DNA of 64,000 bases from Pirellulales bacterium. GTDB lineage: Bacteria > Planctomycetota > Planctomycetia > Pirellulales > JALHPA01. Made by a program: the position numbers and the translations under genes. Positions 18,363-54,812 of this stretch are shown in pieces. Below the pieces are notes generated by a model. The model did not search any database, was not told the DNA's origin, and saw only the letters and a list, made by a program, of their open reading frames with translations. How positions within the stretch are numbered: position 1 is the first letter of the stretch; the number at the start of each line of letters is the position of its first letter. The DNA lies in assembly GCA_049840575.1 (NCBI GenBank), contig JASGKV010000024.1, positions 136,874 to 200,873 of the forward strand. Reading direction: 5' to 3'.

Positions 18363-21300
18363 ATGTCGTTGCGTTTTTTCAGTCTGCGTTGGGCGGCATG
18401 CTGCTGCCTGGTTTCATCCTCGCTCTTACTGCCGGCCGCCGAACCCGCCAAATCCGCGGGCGAACCTGTTCCGGGTTCGAAGAACGATTCACATCCCGCG
18501 CCCGCTGCACACCCCGCGCCGCAAGACGGCCCGCTCGGTCAATCGGGCTCTAAAATTGTCGATGGCGTGTATATGCCGCGAATCGTCGGCGCCAGCGGCG
18601 AAGGGAAAAACGCGATCGGCAACTTCAAGGTTCCGGCCGGCCTCAAGATCGATCTCTTCGCCGCCGAGCCGCAACTGGCCAATCCGGTGGCGTTCTGCTT
18701 CGACCACTTGGGCCGCGCATTCGTCTGTGAAACGTTTCGTCAAAAAAGCAATCAAGGCGTCGAGGACAATCGCGGACACAAGGAATGGCTGAATGATGAT
18801 CTGGCCAGCGACAGCATCGAGGATCGTCGCGCATATATCATCAAGCACCGCCCCGACCAAGGCAAAAGTTATACGCTGGAACACGATCGTATACGTTTGC
18901 TCGAAGATCGCGACGGCGACCATAAATCGATCACGATTCGGTCTACGCCGACGGCTTCAACGATCTGCTCGATGGGACCGGCGCCGGCGTACTGGCGCAC
19001 AAGAACGACGTCTATTACACGTGCATCCCCAGCGTCTACAAGCTGACCGATACGAAAAACAGGGGAAAAGCCGACAAACGCGAAGTCCTCAGCACAGGCT
19101 ACGGCGTGAAGTTCGCCTTTCGCGGACACGACATGCACGGGCTGGTCATCGGTCCCGACGGACGATTATATTTTTCGATCGGCGATCGCGGACTGAATGT
19201 CAAAACGCGCGAAGGTCGGCATTTATATAATCCCGACAGCGGCGCCGTATTGCGGTGCGAACTCGATAGATCGAATTTAGAGATCTTCTGTACCGGCGTG
19301 CGCAACCCACAAGAGTTGGCCTTCGACGACCTCGGCAACCTTTTCACCGTCGACAACAACAGCGACAGCGGCGACAAGGCGCGACTCTATCATCTTGTGC
19401 AAGGGGGCGATTACGGCTGGCGGATGTATTACCAATACCTGCCCGATCGCGGACCGTGGAATCGCGAGATGCTGTGGGGACTGCCCGACAAGAACCAGTC
19501 GTACTCGGTCATCCCGCCGATCGCGCACATCACCGACGGCCCCTCGGGCTTGGTCGCGTATCCCGGCACGGGACTGGGCGACGACTTCCAAGGCTCGTTC
19601 TTCGTCTGCGATTTCCGGGGCGGTCCGGCCAACGGCGCGGTGCGTCGCTTTACGATGGAACCGGACGGCGCGACGTTCAAGCTGGGTAAATACGAGCCGT
19701 TTTTCGAGCGGATTTTGGCCACCGATTGCGATTTCGGCCCCGACGGCGCGTTCTATGTCAGCGACTGGGTCGACGGTTGGGACGGCATCGGCAAGGGCCG
19801 CATCTACCGCGTCACCAACGACGCCACGACCGCCGACGCGCGTGTGAAAGAAGTCCAGACGTTGTTGAAGGACGGCTTCGATCAACGCCCCGTGGCAGAA
19901 CTCACCAAGCTGCTGGGTCATGCCGACCGACGCGTCCGCATGGGAGCGCAGTTCGCATTGGTGGAGAAGAAGGCGATCAAGCCCCTCGCCGGCGTTGCCG
20001 TCGCAGGCACGTCAACGATCCAGCGTTTCCACGCGGTGCAAGGACTTGGCATGATCGCGCGGCTGACGAACGCGGACCCGCAAAGCGAAGCCTTGAAAGT
20101 GTTGCTTCAAGTTTCCGGCACGGATGACCACGAAATCGCAGGACAAGCTCTGATCGCGCTGAGCCAGACAAACGCGGGAAGAGCTTTGATCGATCAAAAA
20201 CATCTCAAGCGACTTCTGTCGGGCGATGCGCACGGCGCGGTGCTGGCCGCATCGTGCGGCGTCGCGGTCTCCGACGCGACGTTCTACGACGAGTTGATCG
20301 CTAAGCACGAAACGTCGCCCATCCTTCGCACCTTGCTCGCAGCGAACCGGGCATCCGCCGTTAAGAGCGATGGTCGCCCGGCGGAATGGTCCGGCATGTC
20401 GCTTACGACGCGTCGCGCACGTTCGGCATTCGAACTCGCTCCCGTTGCACAAGCCTTGGCCGACGCGGATCCCGTCGTCGTGTTGAACGCCGCGATTCGC
20501 ATCTCGGATTACACCGACGAGCAACCGTTGCGTCACATCGCCGGCGGCTACGATGCAAGGAAAATCGATGTCGCGCCGTTGCTCAAACAACTCGCCGCGT
20601 TGATCTCCAAGCCATATCCCGGCAATAAAGAGCAATCCGACGCCCTCTTTCGTCGCATCTTGAATGCCAATTACCGCCTTGGCCAAGGCGAGAACGCCGC
20701 AGCTCTGGCTGTGTACGCGGGGCGCAGCGACGTGCCGGAAAAACTGCGTATCGAAGCACTCGACATGTTGCTGCATTGGGCCGAGCCGTCGTCGATCGAT
20801 CGCGTCACCGGGCAATGGCGACCGCTCGAAAGGCGATCCGCCGAACCGGCCAAGACGGCGTTATCCGCCCACATCGGGCCGATTTTCGCCGGGCCGGATA
20901 AGGTTCGCACCAAAGCGGCCAAGGCGGCCGGCAAGCTCGGCTTGAAGGATATTCAACCCTTGCTCTTGGGCATGCTGCGCAACGGCGCGAAGCCGGTCGA
21001 AGGCCGCGCGGCGGCGTTCTATGCGTTGGGTGAGGTGGCGCCGAAAAATCTGTCGATCCTGATCGACGAATTCAAGGGCGACAAAGCTCCCGAGCTGCGG
21101 ATCGCGGCGGCGACGTTGTTCGCGAAGATCAAACCGCAGGATGCGCCGAAGTATCTCGACGACGTGCTGAACGGCAGCAAGTCGCTGGGCGAGCGTCAAG
21201 CGGCGTTCAAGTTGCTCGAAGGGCTGAAATCGACCGACGCCGATCGCGTGCTGAACGTTTGGATGAGCAAACTCGCCGAGAAGACCGTGCCCGACGAGTT

Positions 21301-21868
21301 ACGGTTGGATCTGACGGCGGCTGTCAAAACGCGCACCACCGATAAGCAAAACAGCGACGCCCGACCGGACCTTATCAAGTCGTGGAAAACGTACTCGAAC
21401 GAGAAATTCGACGACGAAAAATTGAAGCCGTGGCGCGAATCCTTCGTCGGCGGCGACGCCGAGCGCGGCAAGACGATCTTCCACGAGAAGATCGCCGTCA
21501 GTTGCGTTCGTTGTCATAGAATCGGCGAGACCGGCGGCGAAGTCGGACCGAATCTCTCGCACATCGGCAAGGACAAGACGCGCCAATATCTGCTGGAAGC
21601 GATCGTCGATCCGAATCGCGCGGTCACCCAGGGCTTCGAGACCGTGGTCTTGGAACTGGAAAGCGGCCAAGTCGTGACCGGCATCATCAAAAAGGAAACA
21701 CCGGATGAAATCACACTGATCGACGCCAATGCCAAGACGTTAACGGTAAAAACGGCCGAAGTCGAAAGCCGCCAAAAGGGACTCAGCAGTATGCCGAGCG
21801 ACGTCTCGAAAGAACTGACGCCGTTCGAGGTACGCGATTTGGTGGAGTTCTTGCAGGGGCTCAAATAG
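18363..21868 (+). CDS. PVC-type (Pirellula/Verrucomicrobium) putative membrane-bound dehydrogenase domain / HEAT-repeat / heme-binding CxxCH protein; 1 apparent frameshift (~18925)
   Basis: ATG 18363 with signal peptide. N-terminal KVPAGLKIDLFAAEPQLANPVAFCFDHLGRAFVCETF (TIGR02604-like). Beta-propeller-like region (GPDGRLYFSIGDRG). HEAT-like region. C-terminal FHEKIAVSCVRCHRIGETGGEVGPNLSHIG...TPDEITLIDANAKTLTVKTAEVESRQ... (TIGR02603-like CxxCH heme domain). ORFs 18351..19046 and 19106..21868 join after a 1-nt frame change. Confidence 0.75.
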
Positions 21869-34423: not shown

Positions 34424-35116
34424 TTATTCGTAAAGTTCCGCGTCGCCCAGCGATTTTCCGGCGCGATCCTTTTCGGCCAGGATCGGATCGACGACCGGCC
34501 ACGACACGTTCAGCGTCGGGTCGTTCCACAGGACCGTGCGCTCTTCGGCCGGCGCGTAGAGGTCGGTGCATTTGTAGATCACTTCGGTGTCGTCCGTCCG
34601 CGTGCAGAACCCGTGACCGAACCCGGGCGGTACGTACAGCATGCGATACGCGCGGTCGTCGAGGACGACGCCGAACCAGCGGCCGAACGTGGGAGACGAT
34701 TTTCGCAGATCGACGGCCACGTCGTAGATCGCGCCGCGCACCGCGCGGACCAGCTTGCCCTGCGCCCGGCGGATTTGGTAATGCAGGCCGCGCAGCACGT
34801 TGGCGGTCGAGCGCGAGTGATTGTCCTGCACGAACGGCGGCGCGATGCCGGCCGCGGCGTATTTTTCGGCGTGGTAGCTTTCCAGAAAAAAACCGCGATG
34901 GTCCCCGAAGACGCGCGGTTCGATCACGGTCACGCCGGTGTCGCCGAGCGCGGCGAACGACACGCCGCCGACGGCGAAGACGCTCGCCCGTAACGAGTTT
35001 GCGCTCGCGGGATCGGACACGACGCCGATCTCGGCCAGCGCGACGGAGGTTTTCGCCTCCCCCTGCGGTCGTAACGGGCTACTCGCGGCGGTCAGTGTGG
35101 TCCAGTCGATGGGCAT
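34424..35116 (-). CDS. rmlC: dTDP-4-dehydrorhamnose 3,5-epimerase
   Basis: ...IEPRVFGDHRGFFLESY...VQDNHSRSTANVLRGLHYQ...KLVRAVRGAIYDVAVDLRKSSPTFGRWFGVVL...YVPPGFGHGF...YKCTDLY.P.EERTVLWNDP, RmlC signature motifs. The N-terminal extent is uncertain. Confidence 0.7.
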   Translation of the reverse strand: MPIDWTTLTAASSPLRPQGEAKTSVALAEIGVVSDPASANSLRASVFAVGGVSFAALGDTGVTVIEPRVFGDHRGFFLESYHAEKYAAAGIAPPFVQDNHSRSTANVLRGLHYQIRRAQGKLVRAVRGAIYDVAVDLRKSSPTFGRWFGVVLDDRAYRMLYVPPGFGHGFCTRTDDTEVIYKCTDLYAPAEERTVLWNDPTLNVSWPVVDPILAEKDRAGKSLGDAELYE

Positions 35117-35279
35117 AACGTCTAGCGAATTCGGAATGGGCCGCCGATATGACTGATCGAATTGATCCGCATTGATCCGAGCGGGCGATGTCCCCGAGGA
35201 GTCGGCTCAGTCGCTTTTCAGAGCAATGAAAATCCGACTTATCATGATAATCAGCGGCCCATTCCGAGGAACGGCCCGC

Positions 35280-36149
35280 TTACAGCAGTTGCAGCAAATA
35301 CTGCCCATATTCGTTTTTCATGGAGCGACCGAGTTTTTCGAGTTGCGCGGCGTCGATGAATTTTTGGTGATAGGCCACTTCTTCCAGACAGGCGATCTTC
35401 AGGCCTTGTCGCGCCTCGATCGTTTGCACGAAGTTCGACGCTTGGATCAGCGACTCGTGCGTACCGGTGTCGAGCCAGGCGAAGCCGCGCGAGAATTGCT
35501 CGACGTGGCATTGCCCGCGGGCGATGTACTCGCGATTGACGTCGGTGATTTCGAGTTCGCCGCGCGGCGACGGCTGCAAGTTCGCGGCGATGTCGACCAC
35601 TTGGTTGTCGTAGAAATACAGCCCGGTGACGGCCAAGTGCGATTTCGGATCTTTGGGTTTCTCGACCAACGACGCGACGCGACCGGCGGCGTCGAGTTCG
35701 ACCACGCCGTACCGTTCGGGATCCTTCACCGGATAGGCGAAGATCGTCGCGCCGGATTCGTGCGCGGCGGCCTTCTTCAGCAGGTTCTGAAAGCCCTGGC
35801 CGTAGAAGATGTTGTCGCCCAAGACGAGCGCCACGTTGTCGGCGCCGACGAAGTCGCGACCGATGATGAACGCCTGGGCCAGGCCCTCGGGCTTCGGTTG
35901 CGCGGCGTAACGAATATCCAGGCCCAGCGCGGAACCATCGCCCATCAGGCGTTGAAAGCCGGGGGCGTCCTCGGGCGTGGTGATGATCAGAATCTCGCGG
36001 ATTCCGGCCAACATCAGCGCCGAGAGCGGGTAGTACAACATCGGCTTGTCGTAGACCGGCAGCAATTGCTTGCTGACCGCGCGCGTCACCGGATGCAACC
36101 GCGACCCGGACCCGCCCGCCAAGACGATGCCCTTCTTAAAAAAACTCAT
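35280..36149 (-). CDS. rmlA: glucose-1-phosphate thymidylyltransferase
   Basis: ATG 36149: [61 protein letters not shown]..., the canonical RmlA N-terminus (GGxGTRL-type loop). Confidence 0.8.
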
Positions 36150-36217
36150 CCGCGCGCTCCGGGACCGTGTCGATCGAACGTCAGCTTCCACGTCGCCCCG
36201 CGTCTCGTCTCATTCGC

Positions 36218-37975
36218 TTACTTTTTGGCGACGGCGCCGCCGTTGCGGATCAGTTCGGCTTCCAGATCGCGAAACAGCTTTTTCAATTCGTCCCAATCGG
36301 CGCTGGTCGGAAGATTCGGGCTGTTGACGCCGACCTTGAAGCCGAGCTTCCGTTGCAACTCGAACAACTTCGCCTTGACCGGAGGAGGAGGTCCTTGTTC
36401 GGCGAAGAAGTTCGGCTGCCAGCGCGGATCGAGCCGCGCCAACGTGTTGGTCAACGCGACGTACGCCAAGTACCGCTGCACCGCCTCGTCCCAGCTTTCG
36501 ATCGCCGGCGAGACCGAGACGCCCAGGCCGTACAGGCCCGATCGAACGTCGGCGTCTTGATATGTTTCGAGTTCGAGCGCGGCGAGTTCCCCTTCGAGCG
36601 CGGTCAACGCAGTCTCGACCGCCGAGCGGGCGTCCTTCGGCGCGACGTACAGTTTTTGCATTTTCTTGCGAACGTCTTCGAGCGCCAGGCCGACCTTGGT
36701 CTCTTTCCCTTGCTCGTCTTTCCAGAGGAAATCGTTTTGGATACGCGAGAAGTGCCAGTTGCCCCAGGGCAACGTGCCCGGGCGACGCGGATGCCCGGCC
36801 GGCACGCCCTGCACGTCGAGGCGACGCCAGCTCGATTCGCTGAGATCGTGATGACAAGCGAAGCAATCGTATTCGGTGAACTCAGGCCACGTGGCGGTCG
36901 CGCGACCCAGCATCATCTTCGAGGTCAGGTCTTCGCGCAGATGCGGGTTTTCGCCCTGGCTGTCGAGCAGGTCGATCCGTTGACGCAGCAGTCGCAATGC
37001 GACGACCGCTTCGGCCCCCTGTCCGATGCTCCAGAGGCGGGCTTCGATGTCGAGCGGCCGATCGGGAATCTTTTCCGAGCCCGTCGCGCGGGCCATCGCT
37101 TGGCGATCTTTCGAGTCGTCCCAGTGCTTGGGCATCATCGCTTGGAACGTCGAGAACTCGAAGTTCAACCGCGGGTGGCCCGCGGCGATCAAATCGTGGT
37201 TGACGTCGCGATCCGGACCACCGACGTGACACCGCATGCAAATCGCGGCGCGGCTGCTGAGGTCTTTGGTGTTCCACATCTTGTGCGCGTCGCCGACCGT
37301 TTTGGACGGATCGACCGACAGCGTGCGATACCGCTTGGCGTCGGCCTTCCACGAGACTAACGTGTGCGGACCCTTCCATTTCTCCGACGGACCGTGACAC
37401 GCTTCGCACGATACGCCGTCGGACAACGCGAAGTCCGGCGGCGGCGTCTCGGCGTCGGTCATCGACGAGTGGCAGGTCAGGCAGCGGGCGTCTTGCTGCG
37501 GCTTGCTTTCGCTCCACGGCTTGTCGGGCTGGGCCGACGGGCTTTTCACCGCGCCGTCGAGCAACCAGAGAATGCGTTTCGAGCGGTCATCGGTCAGCAC
37601 GCGGTAGGCGTTACGATGCGGATCGTTCTTGGTTTGATAGACGACCGTGTAGGCGTTTTTCCAAGTCGGCGTCACGTTCGCGGACGCCGGTCCGCCGTGG
37701 CAGGCGGCCGAGGCGCAAGAACTGACGCCCATGAATTTCGGACCGGCGTGCGGATCGGCGGCGTTCGGCGCGGCGTTGATCGCGACCGGCGTCAGACGGT
37801 CTGCTTCCGCGAAATTAACAACCTCGGCCGGCGATTCGGAAACGGGGATCGGCGCAGGCGCCACGAATTCGGCCGGCGCGGTTTGCGCGAACGAGAATTC
37901 GCGACCGACGGCCAAGGCCAAGACGAGCGCAAACCGGCGCGGCGGATACGAAAACGAAGATGGAACGACGCGTCA
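36218..37975 (-). CDS. secreted pentaheme c-type cytochrome; 1 apparent frameshift in the signal peptide region
   Basis: Five CxxCH motifs: CASAACH, CLTCH, CEACH, CMRCH, CFACH. ATG 37975 (MTRRSIFVFVSAAP..., own translation) joins the ORF 36218..37921 frame after a 1-nt shift. Confidence 0.7.
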
Positions 37976-38115: not shown

Positions 38116-40552
38116 TTATTCGGCTCGCAACGGGTTGGCGATCTGCCACAGTTGCGGTCCGGTCATACGATGCGCGGCGTCATGGGGACATGCATACACG
38201 CAACTCGGTTTGTCCAAGGGGTCTTTGGCGTTGATTTTCGTGCACAAATCGCACGTAAACGCCTTCAGCTTCTGTTCGCCCTCGTCGTCCCGAATCGGGT
38301 GCAGGTTGATGTTTCCATAAGGACAGTTTTCGGCACATTTGCCGCAACCAATGCACCAATCCTTGATGACGACCTCTTTTCCGACCTCGCGATGGATCGA
38401 TCCGACCGGACAACCCACCATACAGAAAGGGTCGTAACACGAACGACAGGCCGAGGCGACCAAAAATTTGTCGAACCGCAGCCCTTCGCGCGTCAGACGC
38501 GACACGCGGTCGGGGTGCGCGCTCGGCACACGCCTTGGCGCATTCGTCGCAACGCGTACATTTTTCCAAATCGAGAACCAACAGACTCTGCGCGTTGTAC
38601 AACCCTTGATCGAGGAACGGTCCGAACCCCGGCGAGAGGTAGCCGCCGGCCTGAGCTTCGTTGGAACGCAGCCGTTCGGCCGCCGTCTTCAGCAGTTCGG
38701 TCTTGAGATCCGGAAAGTCTTCCAAGATCTAAAAAGTCGTCGCGGCGAATGCGCACCAAATCGACGTGATCCAACGCCGAACACGTGGCGGTCCGCTTCC
38801 CCTCGGGCGTCAAACCTTTGAGTTCGTCGAAGCCGGAGAGCAGACCGATTTCGCCGAAATAGCCACCGGGACCGATATAGTTGAGCACCATATCGCCGTT
38901 GGCGACCTTCACCGAAGCCGGTGCGAACCATATAGAACGCGTCGGCCGGGTCGCCTTTGCGAAAGATGGTTTTTTTGGGGTGCGAACGCAGCAAGTCGAC
39001 CTTATCGCGCAGCCCGTCGATAAACTCCTCGGACCGGGCGGGGTTTTTCGCGAACAACGACTGGAACAAGGGGACTTGCCGCAAGTGGTTGTCCAACACA
39101 CGCGCGCGATACAGAATCTCGCAGCGTTTCGCGCGATCGACGCGTCCGCTGCATCATGTAGACGACGTTGCGCAGGATTTCGAGCACCACGACGTCGCCC
39201 CGCCGCGGATCGTCGCCGACCGCGGGTAGTTGTTCATGCAGGCCATCTCGCCGAAGATGCGGTCGAGACGGTCCATCGTGGTGACCGGATCGCCGTACCG
39301 CAGCGTAACGGGAGCGTCGGAGAGGTTGATCACCTGGCGCGACGACGCAGTGTCGGATTTACCACCGGGGCTTAAGAAGCCGAAGATTTTCGAAAAGATT
39401 CCTCCGCCGGCATCATCTGCCGAGCCGGAAGTTTTGATGCGGACTTCGACCTTGCCGTATTCGATGATGAACGCGGTCGAGCCGTACTCGCCCTGGCGAC
39501 AGATGATTTCGCCGTCGCGATAATGGCGGCGTACCACCGCGCCGAAGTTCCAATCCAGAAACCGTTCGGACATATCGCCGAACAAATCGGGATGGCAGGC
39601 GCACAGTTCGGCGGCCGGCACCGGGCCGGGGCGAATTTTGCGTTTGACCGTCGGGCCTTTGGCGGGTGACGTTTTCAAGCCGCTCATTGGGGTTTCTCCG
39701 CCGCGGTTTCGGCCAACACGCCCGGGTCGTCGGCGGCCAGTTCGATCTCGATTTCGCGTTCCGGCGTGCGATCCATCACGATGTTGATGACCTGCCGATT
39801 GGTCAACGCGCCCGTCGGACACGAGATCATACATTCGCCGCAAAGCGACGCACGACGATTCACCCATCGGTTGGTCGTCGTCGAAGGCGATCCGCGTTTG
39901 ATACCCTTTGCCCATCCGGCCGATGACGAAATTGCTGCGGATTTCGGTACAGGCCCGCACGCAACGGTCGCACAAGATGCACGCGTTGTGATCGACCTGA
40001 ATAATCGGCGACGAATCGTCTTCGCCCCGATCGGGCGACGTGCGCGGGTAGTGATTTTCGCGGGCTTGGATCATTCGCCCGATGCGATCCAGTTCGTTTT
40101 CGGGCATCGTACGCCCATCGGCCAGCGAGGGACGTTGGTAATCGCTTTGCAACAATTCCACGACCGTGCGCACGATCCGCGCGATGCGTTCGCTGCTCTT
40201 CAACGTCGAGATTTCCATCCCGCCGGCGACCGGTAGGTAACAGGCCGGCACGAGCGACGTACGTTTGTTGCCGTTCCTGTCCGTAGCCGTCAGTTCCACC
40301 AAACAGGCGCGACAAACGCCGACCGGTTTCATGTGCTGTTGATGACACAGAATCGGCACGGGAACTTCCTCTTCTTTCAAGACTTCCACATACAGCTTCT
40401 GCGCGGCGTCGTAGATCGTCGTTCGTTGCGAGAACAAATCCTTATCATCGGGACTATATTTCGGCTTCAAAGGACTGATCGAGACTTCGTGCCCGTCGAT
40501 TTTCAACTTGACGGGACCTTTGGACTGCAATTCGGCCCCGGTGCGCGCCCAT
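38116..40552 (-). CDS. Fe-S fusion protein: NuoG-like N-terminal [2Fe-2S]+[4Fe-4S] module, two cyclic-nucleotide-binding domains, and a C-terminal 2x[4Fe-4S] ferredoxin; several apparent frameshifts
   Basis: ORF 39154..40530: KLKIDGHEVSI...TIYDAAQKL...PILCHQQHMKPVGVCRACLVEL (2Fe-2S). QVDHNACILCDRCVRACTEI...IGRMGKGY...ESSC (NuoG-type His/Cys 4Fe-4S). First CNB domain ...RRHYRDGEIICRQGEYGSTAFIIEYGKVEV...IFGEMA...PRSATIR. ORF 38493..39101: second CNB domain ...NYIGPGGYFGEIGLL... ORFs 38180..38725 and 38116..38529: CTRCDECAKAC and CxxCxxCxxxCP repeats (CMVGCPVGSIH, CIGCGKCAENCPYG, CDLCTK..CVYACP). The start is ATG ~40552 or TTG 40530. Confidence 0.6.
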
Positions 40553-40596
40553 GCTCGACGAGCAGATCGCCGATGACTTCGAAAAACTCTAAATCT

Positions 40597-42546
40597 TCAG
40601 CCGGCATCGGTCGCTCCCGGAACAATGATGTGACGACGAATATCGTCCGGAAAATACTTCAGCACGGTCAGAATCGAATTCGGTACGACTTGGCCTAGGC
40701 CGCAGATCGAGGCGTCGATCATGACCAAGCCGAGTTCCTTCACCAGATCGTCGTCCAGCGCGACCCCGCGGTCGAACGTTTGACGCAACATGTAGGCCAT
40801 CTTCTCGGACCCGACGCGACACGGCACGCATTTGCCGCACGATTCGTTGCGGTAAAATTCGACCGAGTTCAACGCCTGATCCAACATATCGGCCCGGTCG
40901 TCGTACGCGACGAACGCGGCGCCGAGCATCAGGCCGCGACCGAGCTTGAACGTCTCCAGATCCAACGGCATGTCGAGGATATCGAGCACGTCGTCGGCCG
41001 ATTTCATCACGCCTCGTTTGACCAGTTCGTCGGCGTAGCGCGGCGAGATTTTTTTGGGTTCGATTTTGTCCGGCAAGAACCCGCTGGAAGGCCCGCTGGT
41101 GGCGATCGCCTTGAGCGTACGCCCCGGCCGCATGCCTCCGGCGCATTCCATCACCAATTCGCGCACCGATTGACCGAACGGCACTTCATAGACTCCCGGT
41201 TTGACGACGTCGCCGCTGATCGAGACGAACCGCATGCCTTTCGCGCCGCGGACGCCTTGTTCGGCGTACCACTTGCCGCCGTTGACGTAGATCGAGGGTG
41301 TCCACGACAAAGTCTCGACGTTGTTCAACAGCGTCGGTTGGCCGCGATAGCCTTCTTCGGAAATGCTGGGCGGCTTGTTGCGCGGTTCGGCGCGGCGATC
41401 TTCCATCGCGGCCAAGAGCGCGTTCTGCTCGCCGCAGATGTATCCGCCCGGGCTGACGTAAACCGGTTTCAAGTCGAACGACAGGCCGCTCCCTTGGATG
41501 TTGTCGCCGCAGATCCCGCCGCGCCCAGGCGTCGCGCACGGCGGCGTCGACCGCTTCGATCTGGTCGTGGTATTCGTGACGAATATAGACGTAGCCTTCG
41601 GCCGCGCCGGTCGTCAAGCCGCCGAGGATCACGCCTTCGAGCACCAAATGCGGAAAACGGAGCAGCAGTTCGCGGTCTTTGAACGTCCCCGGTTCGCTTT
41701 CGTCGCCGTTACAGACGACGTATTTCTTGGCCACTGGAACCGGCAAATTCTCGCGGCGGCACTTGGCCAAGATTTCAGGATCGATCTCGCTCAGTTTGGC
41801 TTGGCTGACTGATTTCCATTTCTCGCCGGCCGGAAAGCCGGCCCCGCCCATTCCGCGGAGATCGGCGATTTTCAGCTCGGCGAGAATCCGCGCGGCGGGG
41901 TTTTGGCGTAGCGCCTTGATCGCGGCCGATGGTTCTTCGTCGGGCTTGAGGTTACGCTCCAGCTTGTAGAGTTCGCCCAGAAGTTCCGGCGGAGTCTTGC
42001 CGCGATACTCGGTATGTTCGGCGAGGAACGTTTTCCACTCGTTCAAGAATTTCTTGACCGCGCCGTACTCGGCCTTCCCGCCGTACGGGTCGACCTTCCA
42101 CGGCAGCGGCGTGCGATCCGGCGCGGGGGGATGCACGTGTTTCCCCGCGTGGGCTTGCGTCATCAGATCGACGTACTGTTCGGCCGCCATGCCGGCGAAC
42201 GTGTGGTCGTCGATCAACACGGCGACCGGTTCGTCGCAGCGGCCGAGACACGAGACGCCGTGGACGGCGATCTGCTCGGTGGGGGATTTCGTCGCGGCGT
42301 TCAACTCGGCCGCGCGACGTTCGAGCGCGCGTTTGCAGGCGTCCGATCCGCGTAAGTGGCAGGCCATGTCGCGGCAGACCATCACTTCGGTCTTCGGCGG
42401 CGGCGCAGCTTGAAGTGCGGGAAAAAGCTGGCCACTTCATGCAAACGATACAGCGGCTCGCCGATGCTTTCGGCGGACGCTTCGAGCGCTTCGTGCGGCA
42501 ACCAGCCCTGCTCCGCCTGGATGCGACGTAATTCTTGGACGATCAT
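40597..42546 (-). CDS. NuoE-NuoF fusion: thioredoxin-like [2Fe-2S] ferredoxin domain + NADH-binding FMN 51-kDa subunit with [4Fe-4S]; 2 apparent frameshifts
   Basis: ATG 42546 overlaps the upstream gene stop (ATGA). NuoE-like: MIVQELRRIQAEQGWLPHEALEASAESIGEPLYRLHEVASFF...VCRDMACHLRG...GVSCLGRCDEPV. NuoF-like: LRGMGGAGFPAGEKWKSV...KYVVCNGDESEPGTFKDRELL...PHLVLEGV, then ...ESCGKCVPCRVGSEKM (4Fe-4S) in ORF 40597..41472. Confidence 0.7.
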
Positions 42547-44160
42547 GGGTTCCGATCCGGGGGATTCGCTTCGGTTCGGGCGGCACGCACGATCGCCTGC
42601 GACTGTTCGTAATAGCGTTCCAACGGCGTCGATGCCGCGCTCCGCGCGACGGCGGGGCGTTTCTCCGGCCAAGGATGTTGGGATTGATGATAGCCGTGAC
42701 ACTCCACGCAATCCGAACGGGCGTGCGTGATCGACTTGTCCGCGGAATTCACGCTGTTCGGCGCGTGACAGCGGACGCAGTTGTCGCGGTCGGGGATCAT
42801 CACTTTTTCGTTGTTGGTCGCGGCGTTCGCACCTTCGCCGAAGGCTCCTTCATGACACGTGCGACAGTCCTTCGAATCCTTGGTCGTCACGTGGGGAGTG
42901 TGATCGAACTTCGCGTGCGCGTACCACGTTCGCGGAACTTTGGTCGGCGCGATCGCGGGGAACAGCGTCGCGCCTTTATCTTCGGCGAATTCTCCGGAAA
43001 CCGTGTGGCATTCGACGCATTGGGTTCGTGTGAGATACTCGGCCGATTTCCGAATTTCCTGCTCCGCTTCCTGACGCTTCGTCTCCGACAGGATACGCGG
43101 GGCTTCGTTCCCCGGGATACGGCGCTCCGGATCCGTGGGTTGCTTATCCAACTCGGGCGAGTCCTGCATCGCCTGCGTGTAGACGGTGTTGCGAACGAAA
43201 CGCGACAGTTCGTCGGGCGTCGACTTATGCACGACCATCGCGCCAGGCGTCCCCGACAAGCCCGCTTGATACGGCAACTGGTGGCAGGCGACGCAGTGGC
43301 GTTCGAACAGCACCGGAAGATAGTTCTTTCCGACGGTCGCGGATCCGGTTTCACCCGAAGCCAACCCGGCGTCGCCGAACTTGGGATTGTCGCGGGTCCG
43401 TTCGTGACAGGACGAGCAGTCGAGTTGCACCCAGCCTTCGTTCTGCACGGATTTGCCGGTGCCGTAGAGTTCGCGGTATTGGGCCGCTTTGCCGACGTTC
43501 GCGCCTAACTCGGCCATGCGGACCAAATCGGTCGGTTGACGCGGCACTTCTTTACGAGCTTCGCCTTTGACGTCGTCCCGCAACGTCTGCGGCAGCCCGG
43601 CGGTCATGTGCAAAGCGTGGTTGAATTTCAACTTGCCCGGATCGACTTTGATCGAGCGAAAGTCGGGGTGTCCGGCGGCGAACGATTCGATCTTCGCGGC
43701 GAACGGCTTCGCCGGATCGCGCGACGGGCCGTCCATATGATCGGCCAGATTCGCATGACAAACGGTACAGTGTTGATCGGCGACGAATTTGATATCGGCC
43801 GAACGACCGAGGTGATCGCGATGGCAAACGGCGCAGTTGGCTTCCAGCGCGCCGAGTTGCTTGTCATACATTTCGTTCTGCGGCGAGTGCGGGCCGGTTT
43901 TCTTGTGGCATTCCAGGCACTTCGAGTCCATCGTCGAGACCCACTCGGGCCATTTCTGTCCGCCGGCGGAACCGGAGATCGGCGTGAACGAAACGTGGCA
44001 AGCCTGACACTTGGCGTCCAACTGTTGATGCTTGGCGATCAACGGTCCGTGCGAGATGACGTATTCGCCGTTATCGGCCAAAGCCGGATAGAGCGCAAAC
44101 GCGCCGGCCAAGAAGATCGCGGCCAACCCGGCGCGGGTCTTCCAAGCGTCCCAGCGGTTG
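42543..44160 (-). CDS. decaheme c-type cytochrome with N-terminal signal-anchor
   Basis: Ten CxxCH motifs: CQACH, CLECH, CAVCH, CTVCH, CSSCH, CVACH, CVECH, CRTCH, CVRCH, CVECH. Likely GTG start 44160 giving MPRDYLRRYNRWDAWKTRAGLAAIFLAGAFALYPALA. The tracked ORF extends to 44315 with an implausible N-terminus. Confidence 0.7.
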
Positions 44161-44331
44161 TAGCGACGAAGATAGTCACGCGGCACGCGCGGTGCGACGC
44201 TTCGCTTCCGGCGGCGGGAGCAGCGGATTTTGCGTAGCGGACATTGCCGACGAGACGAGAGAACCAACCGTACCCAACCGTTGCCGCGACGGACGCCGCC
44301 GCGACATGACAACACGAGCCGACGAACGAAA

Positions 44332-45289
44332 TCACAGGTACTTCAAGGCGTACAGCACGTGCACGAACATCAAAACAACCAGCGCGGCCGACAAAGGCAA
44401 ATGCACCAACAACCAAGAATGCAACCAAGCGTGGAGTTTCGTTTGGAGTTCGAACTCGCGACGCTGACGACAAAGATCACCGAGCGCCTCGACCACTTCG
44501 TCTCCGCCCGGTCCTAATCTGCGACGCAGACCTTCGAAAATTCGCTCGGCGCGCCCCGAGGCGGCGAACGACGATTCTCCGCGTTTCTCGCCGCGCAGAA
44601 AGGGACCGATCTCGGTCGCGTACAGTTCATCCAGAGCGCTCGCGGCCCCGGGTTCCGCGCCGGCTAGGTTCAAAACCGCGACGTTTCGTTCCAGCGTCTT
44701 CTCCTGCCACGGTCGATAACCGCTAACGGCGAAATTCTCTTCATACGCCGGTTCGACCTTCACCGTTTTGAGGGCCGATCGCCCAAGCGACGCCGCGACG
44801 ATCGCTTTGGCCTCTTGATCGAGTTGCGAGGAGACGCGTTCGACTTGGGAGTGAATCGTTTCCGACGGAACTTGCTCGTACATCGTCCGCGGGATGTATT
44901 GTTGCAGGACCAATCCCCAGACGCCGCTGAGAATGACCACGGCGAACAACACCATCAGTATCAGCGCCAGCCAACCGTCGAAACGAAAGCCGGAATGCAG
45001 GACGATTAACGGAACGGTCAACAGACCGAGCCAGATATGTGCGCATCCACGTTTGCGCGCGACCGATGCGCCAGGCGCGCACTTTCTTCCGCGGCCAAAT
45101 CGCGAACTCGAAGAGGATGATCAATCCGCCGACGGTGCCGTAAACCAAGCCTGGCGCGGAAGAACCACCGACCCATTTCCCTTCTGCTTGACTGGAGATC
45201 GCGTACCACGCGCCGACCGCGATCGTGGCGACGACTAAGAACGCGACCCAGCCGCGGTGCTGTTCGAAATGTGGACCGGTGACCAACAC
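44332..45289 (-). CDS. polytopic membrane protein with conserved His in TM helices (candidate b-type-cytochrome-like membrane anchor); 1 apparent frameshift (~45020)
   Basis: GTG 45289: MLVTGPHFEQHRGWVAFLVVATIAVGAWY..., then AHIWLGLLTVPLIVLHSGFRFDGWLALILMVLFAVVIL..., then C-terminal LHAWLHSWLLVHLPLSAALVVLMFVHVLY. The function is inferred only from TM/His pattern and genomic context. Confidence 0.45.
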
Positions 45290-48665: not shown

Positions 48666-51600
48666 ATGACGGAAAACAGCAGTCTTTGGTCGCGATTGAC
48701 CGGGCTGACCGGTCGTATCACCGCCGCGCTCTTTCTGCTGACCGCGATCTTTCCGTTGGTCATCTATATCTTGTCCAGCGAAATCGCGTCGGACACGATC
48801 CTCAAGCATGAGATGGACGATTTAGCCGACGAATCGAGCGATAGCTGCAACGACTTGATCTTGAAACTCGAACAGCTCCGGTCGGACGTATTGCTGCTGG
48901 CCTCGGATATTCAAAATCCGTCAGCCGGTGTTTCTAGGCTTCAAGGGCGATAAAACGCCGACTGCCACGAATCCCGAAGTCGTTGATCCGAAGAATCCCG
49001 GAGAGCCGGATGGCTCGCAAGACGGTACCGAGAAGGCTCTGGAGGAAGTCAAGCGAAATCTCAAAGGCGTCACCAAGGAAGAAGTTCAAGAACGATTGAA
49101 ACGGGCGTTGGTGGAATCCTCTTCGGATGCCTTGGACCCCTACTTCAATTACGAATCCGCCGCCGCAGGCCCCACCTATCTCCCGGGCGTCGAAATCGAA
49201 TCCGTTTACATTCGCGCCGCCGTCTTCAACCGCGACGAGCAGGGGCTGCACGAACTGGGAATGGTTCACAGCGATACGATCTATCGTCAAGGCGAAAGCG
49301 AAGAAACGAAACGCTCCGCGGATGCGGCCGCGATCGACCAATTGAAGACGCTTCTGCCGGAAGCCGAAGCGCGACAAGCGCGTGATCGCACGGACGTCTA
49401 TCTCTCGGACATCTTGGTCAATCCGGAAACCGGGCGTTATACGATTTGGGCGATTCTGGTCATTCCCAAGCTCGATGAAAAACAAAACGTCTTGAATACG
49501 ACGCCGCGCGTCGGCTTTGTCGCGATTCAACTGAATTGGTCGCGATTGATACGCGAGATGGATCGTTCGAATCGCTTGTTAATGTTTCTGGCAGGCAAGC
49601 AGGATGCCGTTTGGAAGTTTTTCGAGCATCCCGAGCAAGACCATCTGACCACCAAGAAGTCGGAGACGTTGCGGCAGATCAATGGCATCGAAAGCGTCAT
49701 CAACTACGAACACGACGACCTCGGCAACTATTCGCCGCTGGATCTCGAAAAGATGCTGGAAGAACGCTACGAAGACCTTAGCGCCCGCAGCAACACGCTA
49801 GGCAACGCGTTTAAAAGCTCACGATTATCCTTAGTCGACGTCCGCCGATATTTCATCGTGGGCTTTATTAATCAGGAGTCGATCGAACAGTATTACCAAG
49901 ACGATCCCAAGCGGCTCGCCGCTGCCGAAAGCCATGCCGCCTATGTCGAGGAACGCCTGAACGCGGAACGACCGGACGGAACTGGCAAGATCGATCAGCG
50001 TCCCGCGAATTATCTCAAGAATCTCTATTACATGCGGATGCTCTGGAGAGAGATGTTCGCGTTACGCGAGAACGAGGAAACGCTGCGTTTCCTGCCTCCG
50101 TTGGATCCTTCGCGACTCGGCCAAATCAACGACCAACGGTATATGGTCAACGGGCGCATGACGCCCGGACAACCCAAACCGGCTTGGATCCCCGCGGTCG
50201 AAGAAGTCTTCCAGAAATTCCACCTCGCGCCGTCGAAGAAAAGTCGCGTAGCGGCGATGAATTATCTGCGGTCTTGGAAAGACTATTCTCAAGCCGAGAT
50301 GGAAACGTACGGCTTGTATGTCGAAAAGATCCCGCTCGACAAAAACGCCGCGGTGACTTCGGCCGAGCCCGCAAAACAAAAAATCCGCTATTTATTGTAC
50401 GGCGCAGCCGCGTCGTATCAGGAAATCGAAGCCGACATCCAGCAAAACCTCTGGGTGTTAAAACTCTTACTGATCGTCGCATTGATCAGTTGCGTGTTGT
50501 TCGCGATCGGCGTATCGAAAACCATCACGAAACCCCTGCGCGGATTGTTGACCGCTATTCAACACGTCGGAACGTTGCGCGGAATACGCGACGACGCCGA
50601 GTTGCCGGTCGACCGATCGGACGAAATCGGTCGCTTAGCCCGCGCGTTCTACTCGATGAACGACGAGCTGCGCAGCAAAGAAGATCGTTTGCGCGACGAA
50701 AAGGCCTACGCGATGGCGATCGTCAATGCGGTCGGAGAAGGGATCGTCACGTTCGACGAAGACGGCAAAATAATCGGCGTGAACGTGGCCGCTCGAAAAA
50801 AGCTGTTCCAGTACAAATCCGATACGCAATTGATCGGCCGCAACTTTTCGGAACTCTTCGCCAACGACGATTGGAACAAAGAAGAAGATATGGAGAACGC
50901 GCTGTCGCAGCGTCGACTCGCAAGTGGCGTCGTTCACGATCATGCAAAAATTGTACGAACCGACCGAATCGGTCGGCATGCGAGCGGACGGCACGACGTT
51001 CCCGATGGAGTACATCCTCAGCGAGTTTCCGCACGGCGGGAATCGTTTCTACACGGCGATCGTCCGCGACATCAGCGAACGCAAGAAATACGAAGAAGAA
51101 CGTCGCCAACGGCGGCGCGAACTGGAACGCGAAGTCGAGCGCAAGACGCAAACAATCCGCGAAAGTAAACGCAAAATCGAAGAAACGTATCAAAAACTGG
51201 AAAGCGAACAACGCCTGAAAGATACATTTCTTCTCGCTTTGACTCACGAAACGAATAACCTGCTGGTCCCCATCATGGGCCATGCCACGGCCTTAGCGCG
51301 AAAGATGGCCGACGATCCCATGGTGGTCGATCGCTCGAACAAGATTCGGCGATCCAGCGAACGCATCCAGCAACTCAGCAACGAGTGCAAGAATTATCAA
51401 AAATTGGTGATGGGCAAAGTCGATTTGACGCCCGTCGAATTCGATCTTAGCGAACTCATACGCGGGATTGCCGAACAACTCGAAGAACGCGCGACGAAGA
51501 ACGAAAGCCGTATCGTTCTCGAAGGGGTCGACGCTTTGGGCAAGATCGTCTCCGACCAAGAACGAATAACGCAAATATTAACCAACTTGGTCGGTAACGC

Positions 51601-52762
51601 TTGCAAGTTCACCAAGCAAGGGACCATCACCATCGCTGCCCAACGTTTGGATCAGAACGCCGGCAATTTCGTACGCATCGACGTGCGAGACACCGGAGTC
51701 GGTATGTCGCCCGAGCAGGCGGACCGATTATTCAAACCGTTCCCGATGATCTCGACCAAGGAACAAAATCCGGACGGGACCGGCTTGGGACTGGCTTTGT
51801 GTAAAGATCTCTGCCGCATCCTGGGCGGAGATATTTCCGCTTCCAGCGAACAAGGCGTCGGATCGACGTTCAGCGTGGTGCTGCCGATCGAACTCCGTTT
51901 GGAGAAAAATCCGGAATCGGCCGCGGAAGAGCACCACGTTTCGACCTTGACCAACGTTTTACGTCCGCACGCGAACGGAGATAAGAAATCGCGTCGGGTG
52001 TTGGTCATCGACGACGATCCGAACGTCTGCGATTTGATGCGCGAGTTTTTAGAGAACCACGGCATGGTCATCAGCACCGCGCACGACGGCCAAACCGGAC
52101 TCGAAATGGCACGAACCCAAAAGCCCGACGTCATCACTCTCGATGCGATGATGCCGAACATGGATGGCTGGACCGTGTTGACGCTACTCAAATCGGATCC
52201 ACAAACCCAACGCATCCCGGTCGTGATGGTCACCGTAGCCGACGATCGAAAGCGGGGCGTCTCGCTGGGCGTCTCCGACTATTTCACAAAGCCGATCGAT
52301 TGGCCGCGTTTGACGCGAATGCTGCAGGATTACACCGGCGGCGAGGCGGCCCCGCGCGTGCTGGTCATCGACGATCAGCCAGGCACGCGCGAGATGTGTC
52401 GCGAGACGCTCGCCGGCAACGGTTGGATCGTGGTCGAAGCCTCGGACGGCGTCAGCGGCTTGGCACAGGTCGAGGCGGCGAACCCGTCGGTGATTTTGCT
52501 GGATCTGTTGATGCCGAATATGGATGGATTCGAGTTTCTCGAAGAGTTGCGCGCTCGCCCCGACGGCGCGAAAATTCCGGTGGTCGTGATGACGGCCAAA
52601 GACTTGACGGACGAAGATCGTTTACGATTGAACGCGCGGGTCGCCGGCGTCATTATGAAGGGAAGATTGTCGACCGACGAACTCTTACAGGAAATGTTGC
52701 AACGCGTGAAATCCATTCTCGAGACGCGCTCGGATCGCACGAAAGAGGTGTCGGTTGGCTAA
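48666..52762 (+). CDS. hybrid sensor histidine kinase (large extracytoplasmic sensor, TM, HAMP, PAS, HisKA, HATPase_c, two receiver domains); 2 apparent frameshifts (~48930, ~50930)
   Basis: ATG 48666 (TM LFLLTAIFPLVIYIL). ORF 48928..51168 has the periplasmic domain, second TM (LWVLKLLLIVALISCVLFAIGVS), HAMP (AFYSMNDELRSK) and PAS. ORF 50924..52762 has H-box (LALTHETNNLLVPIMGHA), N/G boxes (LTNLVGNACKFT, DTGVGMS, GTGLGLALCKDL), REC1 (RVLVIDDDPNVCDL...ITLDAMMPNMDG...) and REC2 (RVLVIDDQPGTRE...ILLDLLMPNMDG...). Confidence 0.7.
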
Positions 52763-53149: not shown

Positions 53150-54794
53150 ATGTCGCAAACTCCGCTCGCACCCGACGCCGGCTCGACGGCCGGGCCTATC
53201 CCACGCCGGAGCGCGTCACATGCCGGTCTAACGCGCGGCTACGTAATTCGTATCCGCGAGGATTTAAGCTCGCCGCTCCGCGCGATCCGCGACTTGGCGT
53301 CGGAACTCGCCGCCGGATCGGCTGAACGCGAGGCGACGTTTTTCAAACGTTTAAACGGCGTCGTCAAGGCCAGCGACGCTTCGCTCGAAACGATCCTGCG
53401 CTTGTGCGACGCCGAGAAACTCGTCGGCGCGGAGATCGATCTTGCGGCGGAGTTTCACACGATTCGTCATGACTTGGCGAATGCCTCGACGATGATGGTC
53501 GGTAATTCAGCGTTGTTGCTACGGGACGAACAGGCGGAAAAATTCGGAACGATGCTTTCCGAACTCAAGCAAATCAAGGATCTCATCGAACTTTATCTAC
53601 GACGAGTCAAAGCGGTACGCCCGGAAGCGATCGCCGATCCTTTGGCCTGCGAAATTCATCCTCAATTCACCGTGACGCAAGATACGACGTCGAGCGAAGA
53701 TCTCGCCAAGGTCTTGCGACCGTCGACATCCCGCCCGGCCGCATTTTGGTCGTCGACGACAATCAAGACACGCTGGATGCGATCACAGCGATCCTGCAAG
53801 ACGTCAAACACGTCGTCACCGCGTTGGACAACGGCACGGCGGCATTAAAATTTATCGAAAAACCCGAGAACCGCGACGCGATCGACGTGGTGCTGCTGGA
53901 CATTCGGTTGGGGAACGAGAACGGCTGCGAAATACTCGGTCGTATCAAATCCATGGCCTGGATGGAGCATGTTCCGGTCGTGATGATTTCAGGGCTGGAA
54001 GATTGGGACGTCATCGCCAAGTGCATCGGCGCCGGGGCGGACGATTATCTCACCAAACCGCCGCGACCGACGATGTTGTTGTCGCGGATGAAGAACTGCT
54101 TATTACGCGTCCGCAACTATCGCGATAACGATCGCGCCAAACGAGTTTTGTCTCAACGTTCGAAAGAACGCGACGGTATCATTCGAAGCCTGTTCCCCAA
54201 GCGGATCGTGCCCGACGTCATCGGGCTGAACGATATCACGCCGAAGCGTTACAACGACCTCGCCGTGATGTTTTGCGACATCGTCGGCTTTACGTCGTAC
54301 TGCGACACGCATCAAGACGATCCGCACAAGGTCGTCAGCAAGCTGCGCGAACTCTTTGAAAAATTCGAGGACGCCGCCGACGCTCATAACGTGGATAAAA
54401 TCAAAACCATCGGCGACTGTTTCATGGGCGCGTGCTGGCCGGAAGACGTCAACAACAACGTCGAAAGCTGCATCCGCGCCGCGCAGGAAATGATGAAGGT
54501 CGCGCAGGGGCTCGATTGGAAACTGCGCATCGGCATTCACCAAGGAACGGTCGTCGCCGGAAAAGCCGGTAAGAAGCAGTACTGCTTCGATCTGTGGGGC
54601 GATACGGTGAATTTGGCCGCGCATCCAAGGCGAAGCGGCCGAGGATTCGATCGCGCTCAGCCATCAGGCGTACGAAGCGGTCCGGGATTTATGCCAAGCC
54701 AAGGACCTGGGTTACGCCGAACTGCATGGCAAAAAAGAGCCGGTCAAGCTCTATCAGTTTCTTCGATTTTGGGATCAAGATTGAGGCGATTCCC
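53150..54794 (+). CDS. signalling protein: N-terminal helical H-box-like region + receiver domain + class III adenylate/guanylate cyclase catalytic domain; 2 apparent frameshifts (~53750, ~54620)
   Basis: ATG 53150. ORF 53120..53848: ...EFHTIRHDLANASTMMVGNSALLL... ORF 53746..54801: REC (ILVVDDNQDTLDAI...VVLLDIRLGNENGCEIL...PVVMISGLED...DDYLTKP), cyclase (LAVMFCDIVGFTSYCD...KIKTIGDCFMGACW...RIGIHQGTVVAGKAGKKQYCFDLWGDTVNLAA). Own translation of the third frame gives the natural C-terminus ...AYEAVRDLCQAKDLGYAELHGKKEPVKLYQFLRFWDQD* (stop 54792-54794). Confidence 0.65.
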
Positions 54795-54812
54795 GTTTTA
54801 ATCGTCTCTAGT

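Follow-up and report, generated by a model that had tools for sequence, protein, structure and literature searches.

Tandem cyclic-nucleotide-binding domains within a predicted NADH-linked iron-sulfur protein of Planctomycetota and Acidobacteriota

The occurrence of two cyclic-nucleotide-binding (CNB) domains inside what reads as an electron-transfer protein raises the question of whether a second messenger might act directly on electron flow. The protein in question is encoded on the minus strand of a 64,000-nucleotide stretch of Pirellulales DNA, called the window hereafter, by a gene that runs from an ATG at position 40607 (MPAEDLEFFEV) to position 38116. The original prediction had placed this gene at 38116-40552 with a product of about 800 amino acids; its end was right, whereas the start lies 55 nt upstream of 40552 and the product comprises about 825 amino acids. 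We found that this product joins a HoxU-like iron-sulfur module, two CNB domains (CNB-A and CNB-B) and a second iron-sulfur module in a single chain, and that intact proteins of the same build are widespread in two bacterial phyla. Our favoured, still tentative, reading is that the protein serves as the cytoplasmic electron-delivery subunit of a four- or five-gene module in which a cyclic nucleotide monophosphate (cNMP) would gate NADH-driven electron export post-translationally.

Two CNB domains in one iron-sulfur protein

The gene was delimited by three-frame translation, by tblastn with the intact homolog P0001, by Pfam and by comparison with intact homologs. Reading through 38116-40607 needs eight frame switches, near 40540, 39845, 39688, 39200, 39110, 38913, 38724 and 38521, and bridging these eight 1-2-nt indels yields a reconstruction of about 825 codons that holds no in-frame stop. 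The nine in-frame pieces adjoin with a spacing of at most 8 nt, start-codon or ribosome-binding-site gaps being absent, and the alignment with homologs continues smoothly over each frameshift junction. An 803-amino-acid version of the reconstruction was used for the Pfam scan and for residue numbering, and in it the cNMP_binding model (PF00027) matched in two stretches (3.6e-27; 94.6 bits against a cutoff of 27.5), together with Fer2_4 (1.9e-5), Fer4_Nqo3 (5.8e-7) and several Fer4 dicluster models at the C terminus, so that the profile check proposed for both the CNB and the Fer4-type domains came out positive.

The same arrangement recurs in other genomes, as had been anticipated. A search of 5.8 billion proteins gave 3023 matches at E<=1e-10, and architecture was judged on the best 120 of these 3023, nearly all of which were intact and which came from Pirellulales, Gemmataceae and Isosphaeraceae. 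More than 100 homologs are intact single chains of 750-860 amino acids, sharing 45-60% identity with the reconstruction over 98-100% of its length and carrying the same Pfam set in the same order, which bears out the claim that two CNB domains lie between iron-sulfur modules of one polypeptide. A pattern scan that took one genome for each GTDB species turned up a relative in at least 591 species representatives from Planctomycetota and Acidobacteriota; among these are the cultured Tautonia sociabilis and, from the Acidobacteriota, members of the classes and orders Terriglobia, Bryobacterales, Acidoferrales and Vicinamibacterales. An exhaustive HMMER search of 1.84 billion representatives returned 930 at E<=1e-30. 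All members that we encountered carry generic annotations only. The gene is also present, at 43-47% identity to the window reconstruction, in three metagenome-assembled genomes (MAGs) deposited as 'Candidatus Kuenenia stuttgartiensis' (L011, L015 and L016).

The N-terminal part opens with a [2Fe-2S] domain at 40200..40512 (Fer2_4), whose four cysteines, in ILCHQQH..VCRAC..PAC, are kept in 193-194 of the 196 sequences that we aligned, in agreement with the 2Fe-2S site originally read there. It is followed at 39800..39996 by a 2x[4Fe-4S] ferredoxin-fold module (CILCDRCVRAC ... C-x-x-CGECMISCP; Fer4_Nqo3, Fer4_9 and Fer4_21), within which one frameshift (~39845) falls and whose eight cysteines are invariant in all 196 sequences. 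This part of the protein had been described as a NuoG-type module with a His/Cys-ligated 4Fe-4S cluster, a description that has to be given up on both counts. Among PDB sequences, the nearest solved relatives of the region are the alpha subunit of NAD-dependent formate dehydrogenase and the electron-bifurcating hydrogenase subunit HydA (1e-42 to 1e-38), and the homolog P0054 matched the HoxU model at 6.8e-36 and the FeFe-hydrogenase A6 model at 8.4e-48, whereas it reached 48.7 bits against a cutoff of 470 with the NuoG model TIGR01973. The likeness to HoxU also stays below equivalog level (NF005745, 123.8 bits against a cutoff of 333), and we therefore speak of a HoxU/HydA-type or HoxU-like module. 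In the Pfam scan the window protein matched neither a molybdopterin domain nor PF10588 (H-x3-C-x2-C-x5-C), and its segment equivalent to the N5 site contains no cysteine, the module that comes after it being the eight-cysteine 2x[4Fe-4S] one. At the equivalent of ~40050-40190, 112 of the 196 homologs keep an H-x3-C-x8-C remnant of the His-ligated site of NuoG and HydA, and all cysteines of this site are gone in the window clade and in at least 75 other homologs; the family thus seems, from this pattern of residues, to have been caught midway through the loss of a His-ligated cluster.

The two ends of the CNB tandem are attached in very different ways. The stretch between the HoxU-like module and CNB-A (39619..39799) is a variable tether of 24-96 residues with a mean column conservation of 0.17 over the 196 sequences, and its predicted local distance difference test (pLDDT) score is below 50 in the AlphaFold2 model of P0001. 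On the other side, at 38179..38723, a connector helix leads from CNB-B into the C-terminal iron-sulfur module, and this connector has a fixed length of 55-62 residues (standard deviation 0.6). The C-terminal module (Fer4, Fer4_7 and Fer4_11) had been taken for a 2x[4Fe-4S] ferredoxin, but it contains 16 cysteines in four motifs (C-x2-C-x2-C-x3-C / C-x2-C-x4-C-x3-CP / C-x2-C-x2-C-x3-CP / C-x2-C-xn-C-x3-CP), invariant in 196 of 196 sequences, and therefore reads as a 4x[4Fe-4S] module. It is of DmsB/HydN type, P0054 matching DmsB at 1.1e-13 and HydN at 1.1e-11, with 51.5 bits against a cutoff of 214 for the DmsB model TIGR02951. Altogether 28 cysteines are kept in 193-196 of the 196 sequences, sufficient for seven clusters, and on the strength of this ligand conservation we predict a complement of one [2Fe-2S] and six [4Fe-4S] clusters.

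CNB-A occupies 39100..39618 and is distinguished by an insertion of about 40-55 residues in its beta-barrel; CNB-B occupies 38724..39099, its best Pfam stretch being residues 517-603, and a long helix joins the two. The FGE...R-x-A phosphate-binding cassettes, the soundness of which had been set beforehand as a test of the prediction, proved canonical when judged against the pattern G-E-x-[AG]-x(n)-R-[ST]-A, and they are strongly constrained. The CNB-A cassette (FGEMACMNNYPRSATIRG, 39202-39255) conforms to the pattern F-G-E-M-[TS]-C-M-x-x-Y-P-R-S-A-T-V, which is invariant in 196 of 196 sequences from two phyla, and its G-to-A span of 17 residues matches the canonical consensus for families that bind nucleotides, both bacterial and eukaryotic. 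In the aligned CNB-B cassette (YFGEIGLL...GKRTATCS, 38778-38861) the Gly, Glu and Ala are invariant, the Arg is present in 188 of the 196 and the T-A-T is conserved; a 10-residue insertion lengthens this cassette in Planctomycetota, whereas about 60 Acidobacteriota sequences have it at canonical length. The best PDB matches found by Foldseek for the AlphaFold2 model of P0001 are the tandem CNB-A/B domains of PKA-R and PKG (5kbf, 4z07 and 3of1; E ~1e-14), and the CNB tandem matched yeast Bcy1 at 1.2e-20 in a profile comparison, so that a resemblance to PKA-R/PKG is supported in sequence and in predicted fold. Neither HTH_Crp nor any other helix-turn-helix (HTH) model is among the 17 Pfam matches, and the chain ends in the Fer4 module and not as CRP/FNR proteins do. 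With such cassettes, the two domains most likely bind cyclic AMP (cAMP) or cyclic GMP (cGMP).

Cysteines are a further peculiarity of these domains. They are near-universal (194-196 of 196) at two sites of CNB-A, one in the cassette (FGEMxCM, ~39240 in the window) and one in the beta2 strand (ICREGE, ~39500), and another follows the CNB-B cassette (RTATC) in 187 of 196 sequences. The cassette cysteine of CNB-A departs from the consensus motifs in the table of Kannan et al., and the conserved cysteines might constitute a redox-sensitive pair.

The operon and a putative route for electrons

What surrounds the gene was examined in 82 sources, namely 81 related loci and the window, and all operon genes named here lie on the minus strand. 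Immediately upstream, at 40597..42546, is a NuoE-NuoF fusion gene (nuoEF) with two frameshifts (~42400 and ~41515), which was traced through its frames and through an intact homolog that matched 2Fe-2S_thioredx, Complex1_51K, SLBB and NADH_4Fe-4S in Pfam and nuoF_fam in NCBIfam (8.7e-121). It retains GMGGAGF and NGDESEPG, for flavin mononucleotide (FMN) and NADH, and CGKCVPC, for the N3 cluster; judged by these motifs it is a genuine NADH/FMN input module, with [2Fe-2S], FMN and [4Fe-4S] as its predicted cofactors. It adjoins the CNB gene in 80 of the 82 sources. The start of the CNB gene overlaps the nuoEF stop codon by 11 nt, an overlap found again at the homologous locus of P0002, and nuoEF in turn overlaps the stop of the preceding cytochrome gene in ATGA; co-translation is therefore indicated.

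That preceding gene, intact at 42543..44315, encodes a decaheme c-type cytochrome with ten CxxCH motifs, an N-terminal membrane anchor or signal, and Pfam matches to Cytochrome_C7 and an MtrC/MtrF-like domain; a decaheme-type homolog is present in 73 of the 82 sources. Next to it, at 44332..45289, a gene with one frameshift specifies a membrane protein with five transmembrane helices (5-TM protein), recognised from its frames and from the alignment and hydropathy of 71 sequences, and homologs of it occur in 74 of the 82 sources. Over these 71 sequences four histidines are invariant and form two pairs, in TM3 and TM5, with a spacing of 13 residues, and the protein is probably a transmembrane electron carrier with two bis-His hemes b. 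On the other side of the CNB gene, at 36218..37921, an intact gene encodes a second c-type cytochrome with four CxxCH motifs and one CxxxxCH (Cytochrome_C554, C7), homologs of which lie within 8 kb in 64 of the 82 sources.

The order of these genes differs between the phyla, being membrane-cytochrome-nuoEF-CNB in Planctomycetota and nuoEF-CNB-membrane-cytochrome in Acidobacteriota; that the linkage was kept despite the rearrangement argues for a functional unit. No complex I-type subunit was detected among the operon genes or among the window open reading frames (ORFs) scanned with Pfam, no hydrogenase gene in the operon, and neither a molybdopterin catalytic subunit nor an NrfD/DmsC anchor gene adjacent to the CNB gene. 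Of the respiratory complex with NADH activity that had been envisaged, the NADH/FMN partner is thus upheld by the motifs of the NuoE-NuoF fusion, and membership of a complex I is not.

The placement of the CNB domains between two iron-sulfur modules was confirmed for the HoxU-fused homologs, but it is not universal. About 40% of the best 150 of the 930 representatives open with the CNB tandem and not with the HoxU-like module, a rough estimate because the custom hidden Markov models used to classify domain strings in these 150 were noisy, their Fer4 motifs cross-matching, and we used this classification for no other purpose. The variants are cassette-only proteins of about 520-560 amino acids, FHA-cassette fusions and triple-CNB forms, in all of which the CNB domains precede the 4x[4Fe-4S] module and the HoxU-like part is missing. 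Downstream of the cassette gene, two variant loci carry a membrane-protein homolog (35% identity, 1e-55) and a cytochrome with 10-13 hemes; ahead of the cassette gene, one locus (L083) encodes an FNR-like NAD-binding protein as well as a small ferredoxin of the 2x[4Fe-4S] kind. Since the variant loci retain these elements, the invariant core consists of CNB-CNB-4x[4Fe-4S], the membrane protein and a multiheme cytochrome, and the NAD(P)H-oxidising input is interchangeable, because cassette-only and FHA loci keep the membrane protein and the cytochrome while lacking the HoxU-like part. At the other extreme, one representative, P0151, unites NuoE, NuoF, the HoxU-like module, both CNB domains and the Fer4 module in one polypeptide of 1483 amino acids.

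From these elements a route can be proposed. At the FMN of the NuoE-NuoF fusion, with which the protein is apparently co-translated, NADH would give up its electrons, and these would pass to the [2Fe-2S] and 2x[4Fe-4S] clusters of the HoxU-like N-terminal module and then to the C-terminal DmsB-like chain of four [4Fe-4S] clusters. They would cross the membrane by way of the 5-TM protein, probably through its two bis-His hemes b, and would arrive at the periplasmic decaheme cytochrome c, with the second cytochrome nearby. Binding of cAMP or cGMP may cause a hinge-type rearrangement as in PKA-R/PKG, by which docking of the donor on the four-cluster module would be allowed or blocked; given a CNB tandem firmly fixed to the four-cluster module and a donor module attached through the variable tether, such a hinge movement could expose or occlude the donor docking site. 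In its most explicit form, which we consider possible though on balance doubtful, the proposal is that a cNMP directly opens or closes the electron wire by repositioning the tethered NADH-fed donor relative to the four-cluster acceptor, and so switches a non-quinone route from NADH to periplasmic multiheme cytochromes, through a membrane heme protein without a solved relative, in hundreds of species of soil Planctomycetota and Acidobacteriota. As in NOX-type transfer, an outward route that bypasses quinone would dissipate membrane potential instead of building it, and we therefore consider tight gating of such a route sensible. The family is large, spans two dominant soil phyla and is linked to multiheme cytochromes and to an uncharacterised membrane protein.

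A candidate source of the nucleotide lies in the window itself. At 53746-54801 (plus strand), 13 kb from the operon, a class III adenylate/guanylate cyclase with a response-regulator receiver is encoded, and it is possible that this receiver-cyclase provides cNMP locally. Next to it (48928-52762, plus strand) is a hybrid histidine kinase of the build HAMP-PAS-HATPase-REC, which itself appears to be split by a frameshift. Immediately downstream of the second cytochrome, on the minus strand at 34424-36191, genes resembling those for glucose-1-phosphate thymidylyltransferase (35280-36191) and for a dTDP-sugar epimerase (34424-35116) were recognised from their translations alone; both are probably unrelated to the operon. 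An intact ORF of 920 amino acids at 19106-21868 (plus strand), with GSDH/DUF7133, HEAT repeats and a C-terminal cytochrome c domain, is likewise unrelated to the present finding.

Points against the proposal and rival explanations

Several points weigh against the proposal of gated electron export, and rival explanations build on some of them. The 5-TM protein showed sub-threshold Pfam similarity only, to DUF4405, Ni_hydr_CYTB and Ferric_reduct, and its homolog P0270, for which AlphaFold2 gave a confident model (pLDDT 88.4), had no convincing or significant fold match to known di-heme proteins in the PDB. We therefore put forward di-heme b binding by this protein as a prediction. For P0001 as a whole AlphaFold2 gave a poor model (pLDDT 62.7; predicted template-modelling score 0.44), its CNB region scoring 70-90. 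Electrons may also flow in the reverse direction. Lastly, the sole paper that we found to mention the cassette, a preprint on the ptd operon (bioRxiv 10.1101/2023.11.21.568154), states that the function of that operon 'remains completely unknown'.

A further point concerns the ligand. CNB-fold domains elsewhere in the CRP/FNR superfamily sense heme, 2-oxoglutarate and other ligands. The CNB domains of the present family might accordingly be ligand-independent, or bind another nucleotide or a redox metabolite, and act structurally, for scaffolding or dimerisation, in an electron-transfer subunit that works constitutively. The insertion of 40-55 residues and the unusual invariant cassette cysteine of CNB-A would fit this explanation, as would the 10-residue insertion in the CNB-B cassette of Planctomycetota, and non-canonical cassettes have been tabulated (PMC2246266). 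Cyclase genes, moreover, lie within 8 kb of the operon at 7 of 80 loci, which we judge to be chance level for phyla rich in cyclases. Yet the cassette positions in contact with the cyclic phosphate (Gly, Glu, Arg and Ala) are invariant in CNB-A in 196 of 196 sequences across both phyla, and the same contacts are near-invariant in CNB-B, the cassette of which is of canonical length in Acidobacteriota. Families that do not bind nucleotide typically lose the cassette Arg and Glu (Table 1 of PMC2246266). We therefore regard a ligand other than a cyclic nucleotide, or none at all, as unlikely.

The remaining points concern the state of this copy. Eleven frame breaks fall within about 5.4 kb of three genes (eight in the CNB gene, two in nuoEF and one in the membrane-protein gene), whereas the two cytochrome genes, 3.5 kb together, have none; ORFs of 2.7 kb are intact elsewhere in the window, and the reconstruction departs from the family at 6 of 156 near-invariant columns, other members doing so at 0.68 on average. 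These three genes might thus be decaying pseudogenes in this genome, which would be in keeping with such uneven damage but which we nonetheless think improbable. All eight lesions of the CNB gene are 1-2-nt indels, mostly at G/C runs, CGCGCG repeats or a T run, and indels at homopolymers and repeats are typical of long-read consensus errors. No nonsense codon occurs in the 825 codons, all 28 cluster cysteines and both cassettes are intact, three of the six column deviations sit at splice junctions of the reconstruction, and other genes of the window, such as that at 48928-52762, look broken as well. The longest fragment, the ORF at 39154-40530, is identical except for its start residue to the public protein P0008 (458 amino acids, annotated '2Fe-2S iron-sulfur cluster-binding protein') of a 345-kb Pirellulales MAG contig, and the frameshifts are therefore part of the deposited assembly. 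The eight small indels are most likely assembly errors. For the uneven clustering of the frame breaks, a locally poor consensus, strain heterogeneity and real decay are all candidates. A frame-plot of GC content at third codon positions, meant for counting frameshifts, found only two of the eight known breaks and was discarded.

The protein might, alternatively, be chiefly a signalling device and not a bulk conduit. Its Fe-S chain would then sense how reduced the NADH pool or the periplasmic cytochromes are, and the CNB domains would combine this information with the cNMP level, for example to direct assembly, localisation or a downstream partner. Some relatives do carry an N-terminal FHA domain, which binds phosphothreonine, or a third CNB domain with no NADH module in the chain, and two-component and cyclase genes are found nearby in the window. 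However, seven clusters, with an FMN/NADH module, a partner in the membrane and a decaheme cytochrome besides, make up a full wire, beyond the size of a sensor, and the HoxU-fused form revealed no output domain (HTH, kinase, GGDEF or similar) in the Pfam scan. The tight translational coupling with nuoEF, too, points to a stoichiometric enzyme complex, and we hold a primarily signalling role to be distinctly unlikely. That the locus is a row of distinct genes, with a CNB protein standing alone between Fe-S proteins, is suggested by a deposited annotation that shows fragments only, such as P0008, but it is extremely improbable given the intact single-chain homologs, the abutting pieces and the unbroken alignment across all junctions.

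Comparison with known systems

Outside the generic database entries under which the family is already held, its cassette has been noticed once before, in the ptd preprint. There an operon ptdABCDEFG was named and found in MAGs of Planctomycetes among others, with ptdE, ptdF and ptdG highly prevalent; PtdC is given as a FAD/NAD(P) oxidoreductase, PtdF as a 'transmembrane ferric reductase-like protein' and PtdG as a periplasmic decaheme cytochrome (bioRxiv 10.1101/2023.11.21.568154). By content, and as matched against the preprint's descriptions only, the PtdE/F/G triad of a CNB + 4Fe-4S protein, a ferric-reductase-like membrane protein and a decaheme cytochrome is present in the window operon and, among the 82 sources, in 73-74; PtdE, again compared by description, looks like a cassette-only version of the shared core. 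The window form differs in its additional N-terminal HoxU-like module, which is paired with NuoE-NuoF in the role of PtdC, and in the four [4Fe-4S] motifs, not two, that we counted in its C-terminal module. No porin, tetraheme or PtdC-like FAD/NAD(P) gene was identified in the window operon. The second cytochrome was considered as a counterpart of the PtdA pentaheme protein; against PDB sequences it matched only generic multiheme proteins, and these weakly, and no solved pentaheme. Our literature search found nothing relevant that links CNB domains with NuoF, HoxU, NuoG, Planctomycetes or Acidobacteria, and no description of the HoxU-fused, NuoEF-coupled form. Our proposal offers a testable function for ptdE/F/G, and with Tautonia sociabilis a cultured carrier exists.

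As for the partners of CNB domains, the original prediction held these to be normally HTH domains, kinases or channels, which is too narrow, since Kannan et al. (2007; PMC2246266) list fusions to pyridine-nucleotide-disulphide oxidoreductases, AAA ATPases and CBS domains as well as to histidine kinases. Of the 30 CNB families in that census none has an Fe-S partner. The closest among them in kind is the Bact_Pyrredox family, in which a tandem of bacterial CNB domains is fused to a redox enzyme and which thus provides a precedent for putative cNMP control of an oxidoreductase, although its redox partner is a flavoprotein disulphide oxidoreductase and not an Fe-S wire.

With HoxEFU, FdsABG and HydABC the present system shares a NuoE-like [2Fe-2S] and a NuoF-like FMN/[4Fe-4S] partner, and an N-terminal [2Fe-2S] domain followed by 2x[4Fe-4S]. 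Unlike these, the window protein lacks any catalytic part, be it an H-cluster, a NiFe partner or molybdopterin, and carries the tandem CNB domains and the four-cluster ferredoxin instead; the His-ligated cluster is lost in the window clade, and the genes that share the operon encode a membrane protein and multiheme cytochromes. The C-terminal half recalls DmsB, HydN and FdnH in its 16-Cys, four-motif module and, as in FdnH-FdnI, in a neighbouring membrane protein with paired histidines in two helices and weak Ni_hydr_CYTB similarity. It is set apart from them in being cytoplasmic, with no twin-arginine (Tat) signal, in its fusion to an NADH-linked module and in scores far under the equivalog cutoffs, and the 5-TM protein has no confirmed fold relationship to FdnI, HyaC or NOX.

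The regulatory part is most like PKA-R and PKG, with which it has in common two successive CNB domains, a long helix between them and canonical cassettes. It differs from them in being embedded in an Fe-S protein, in the insertion and cassette cysteine of CNB-A and in the CNB-B cassette lengthened in Planctomycetota, and its ligand is a predicted one. Known cyclic-nucleotide control of respiration or electron export is transcriptional, of the CRP type, and known conformational gating in NuoEFG-type enzymes is redox-driven. If the gating proposed here is true, the CNB tandem in an Fe-S subunit would bring electron flow under fast, post-translational control by a second messenger.

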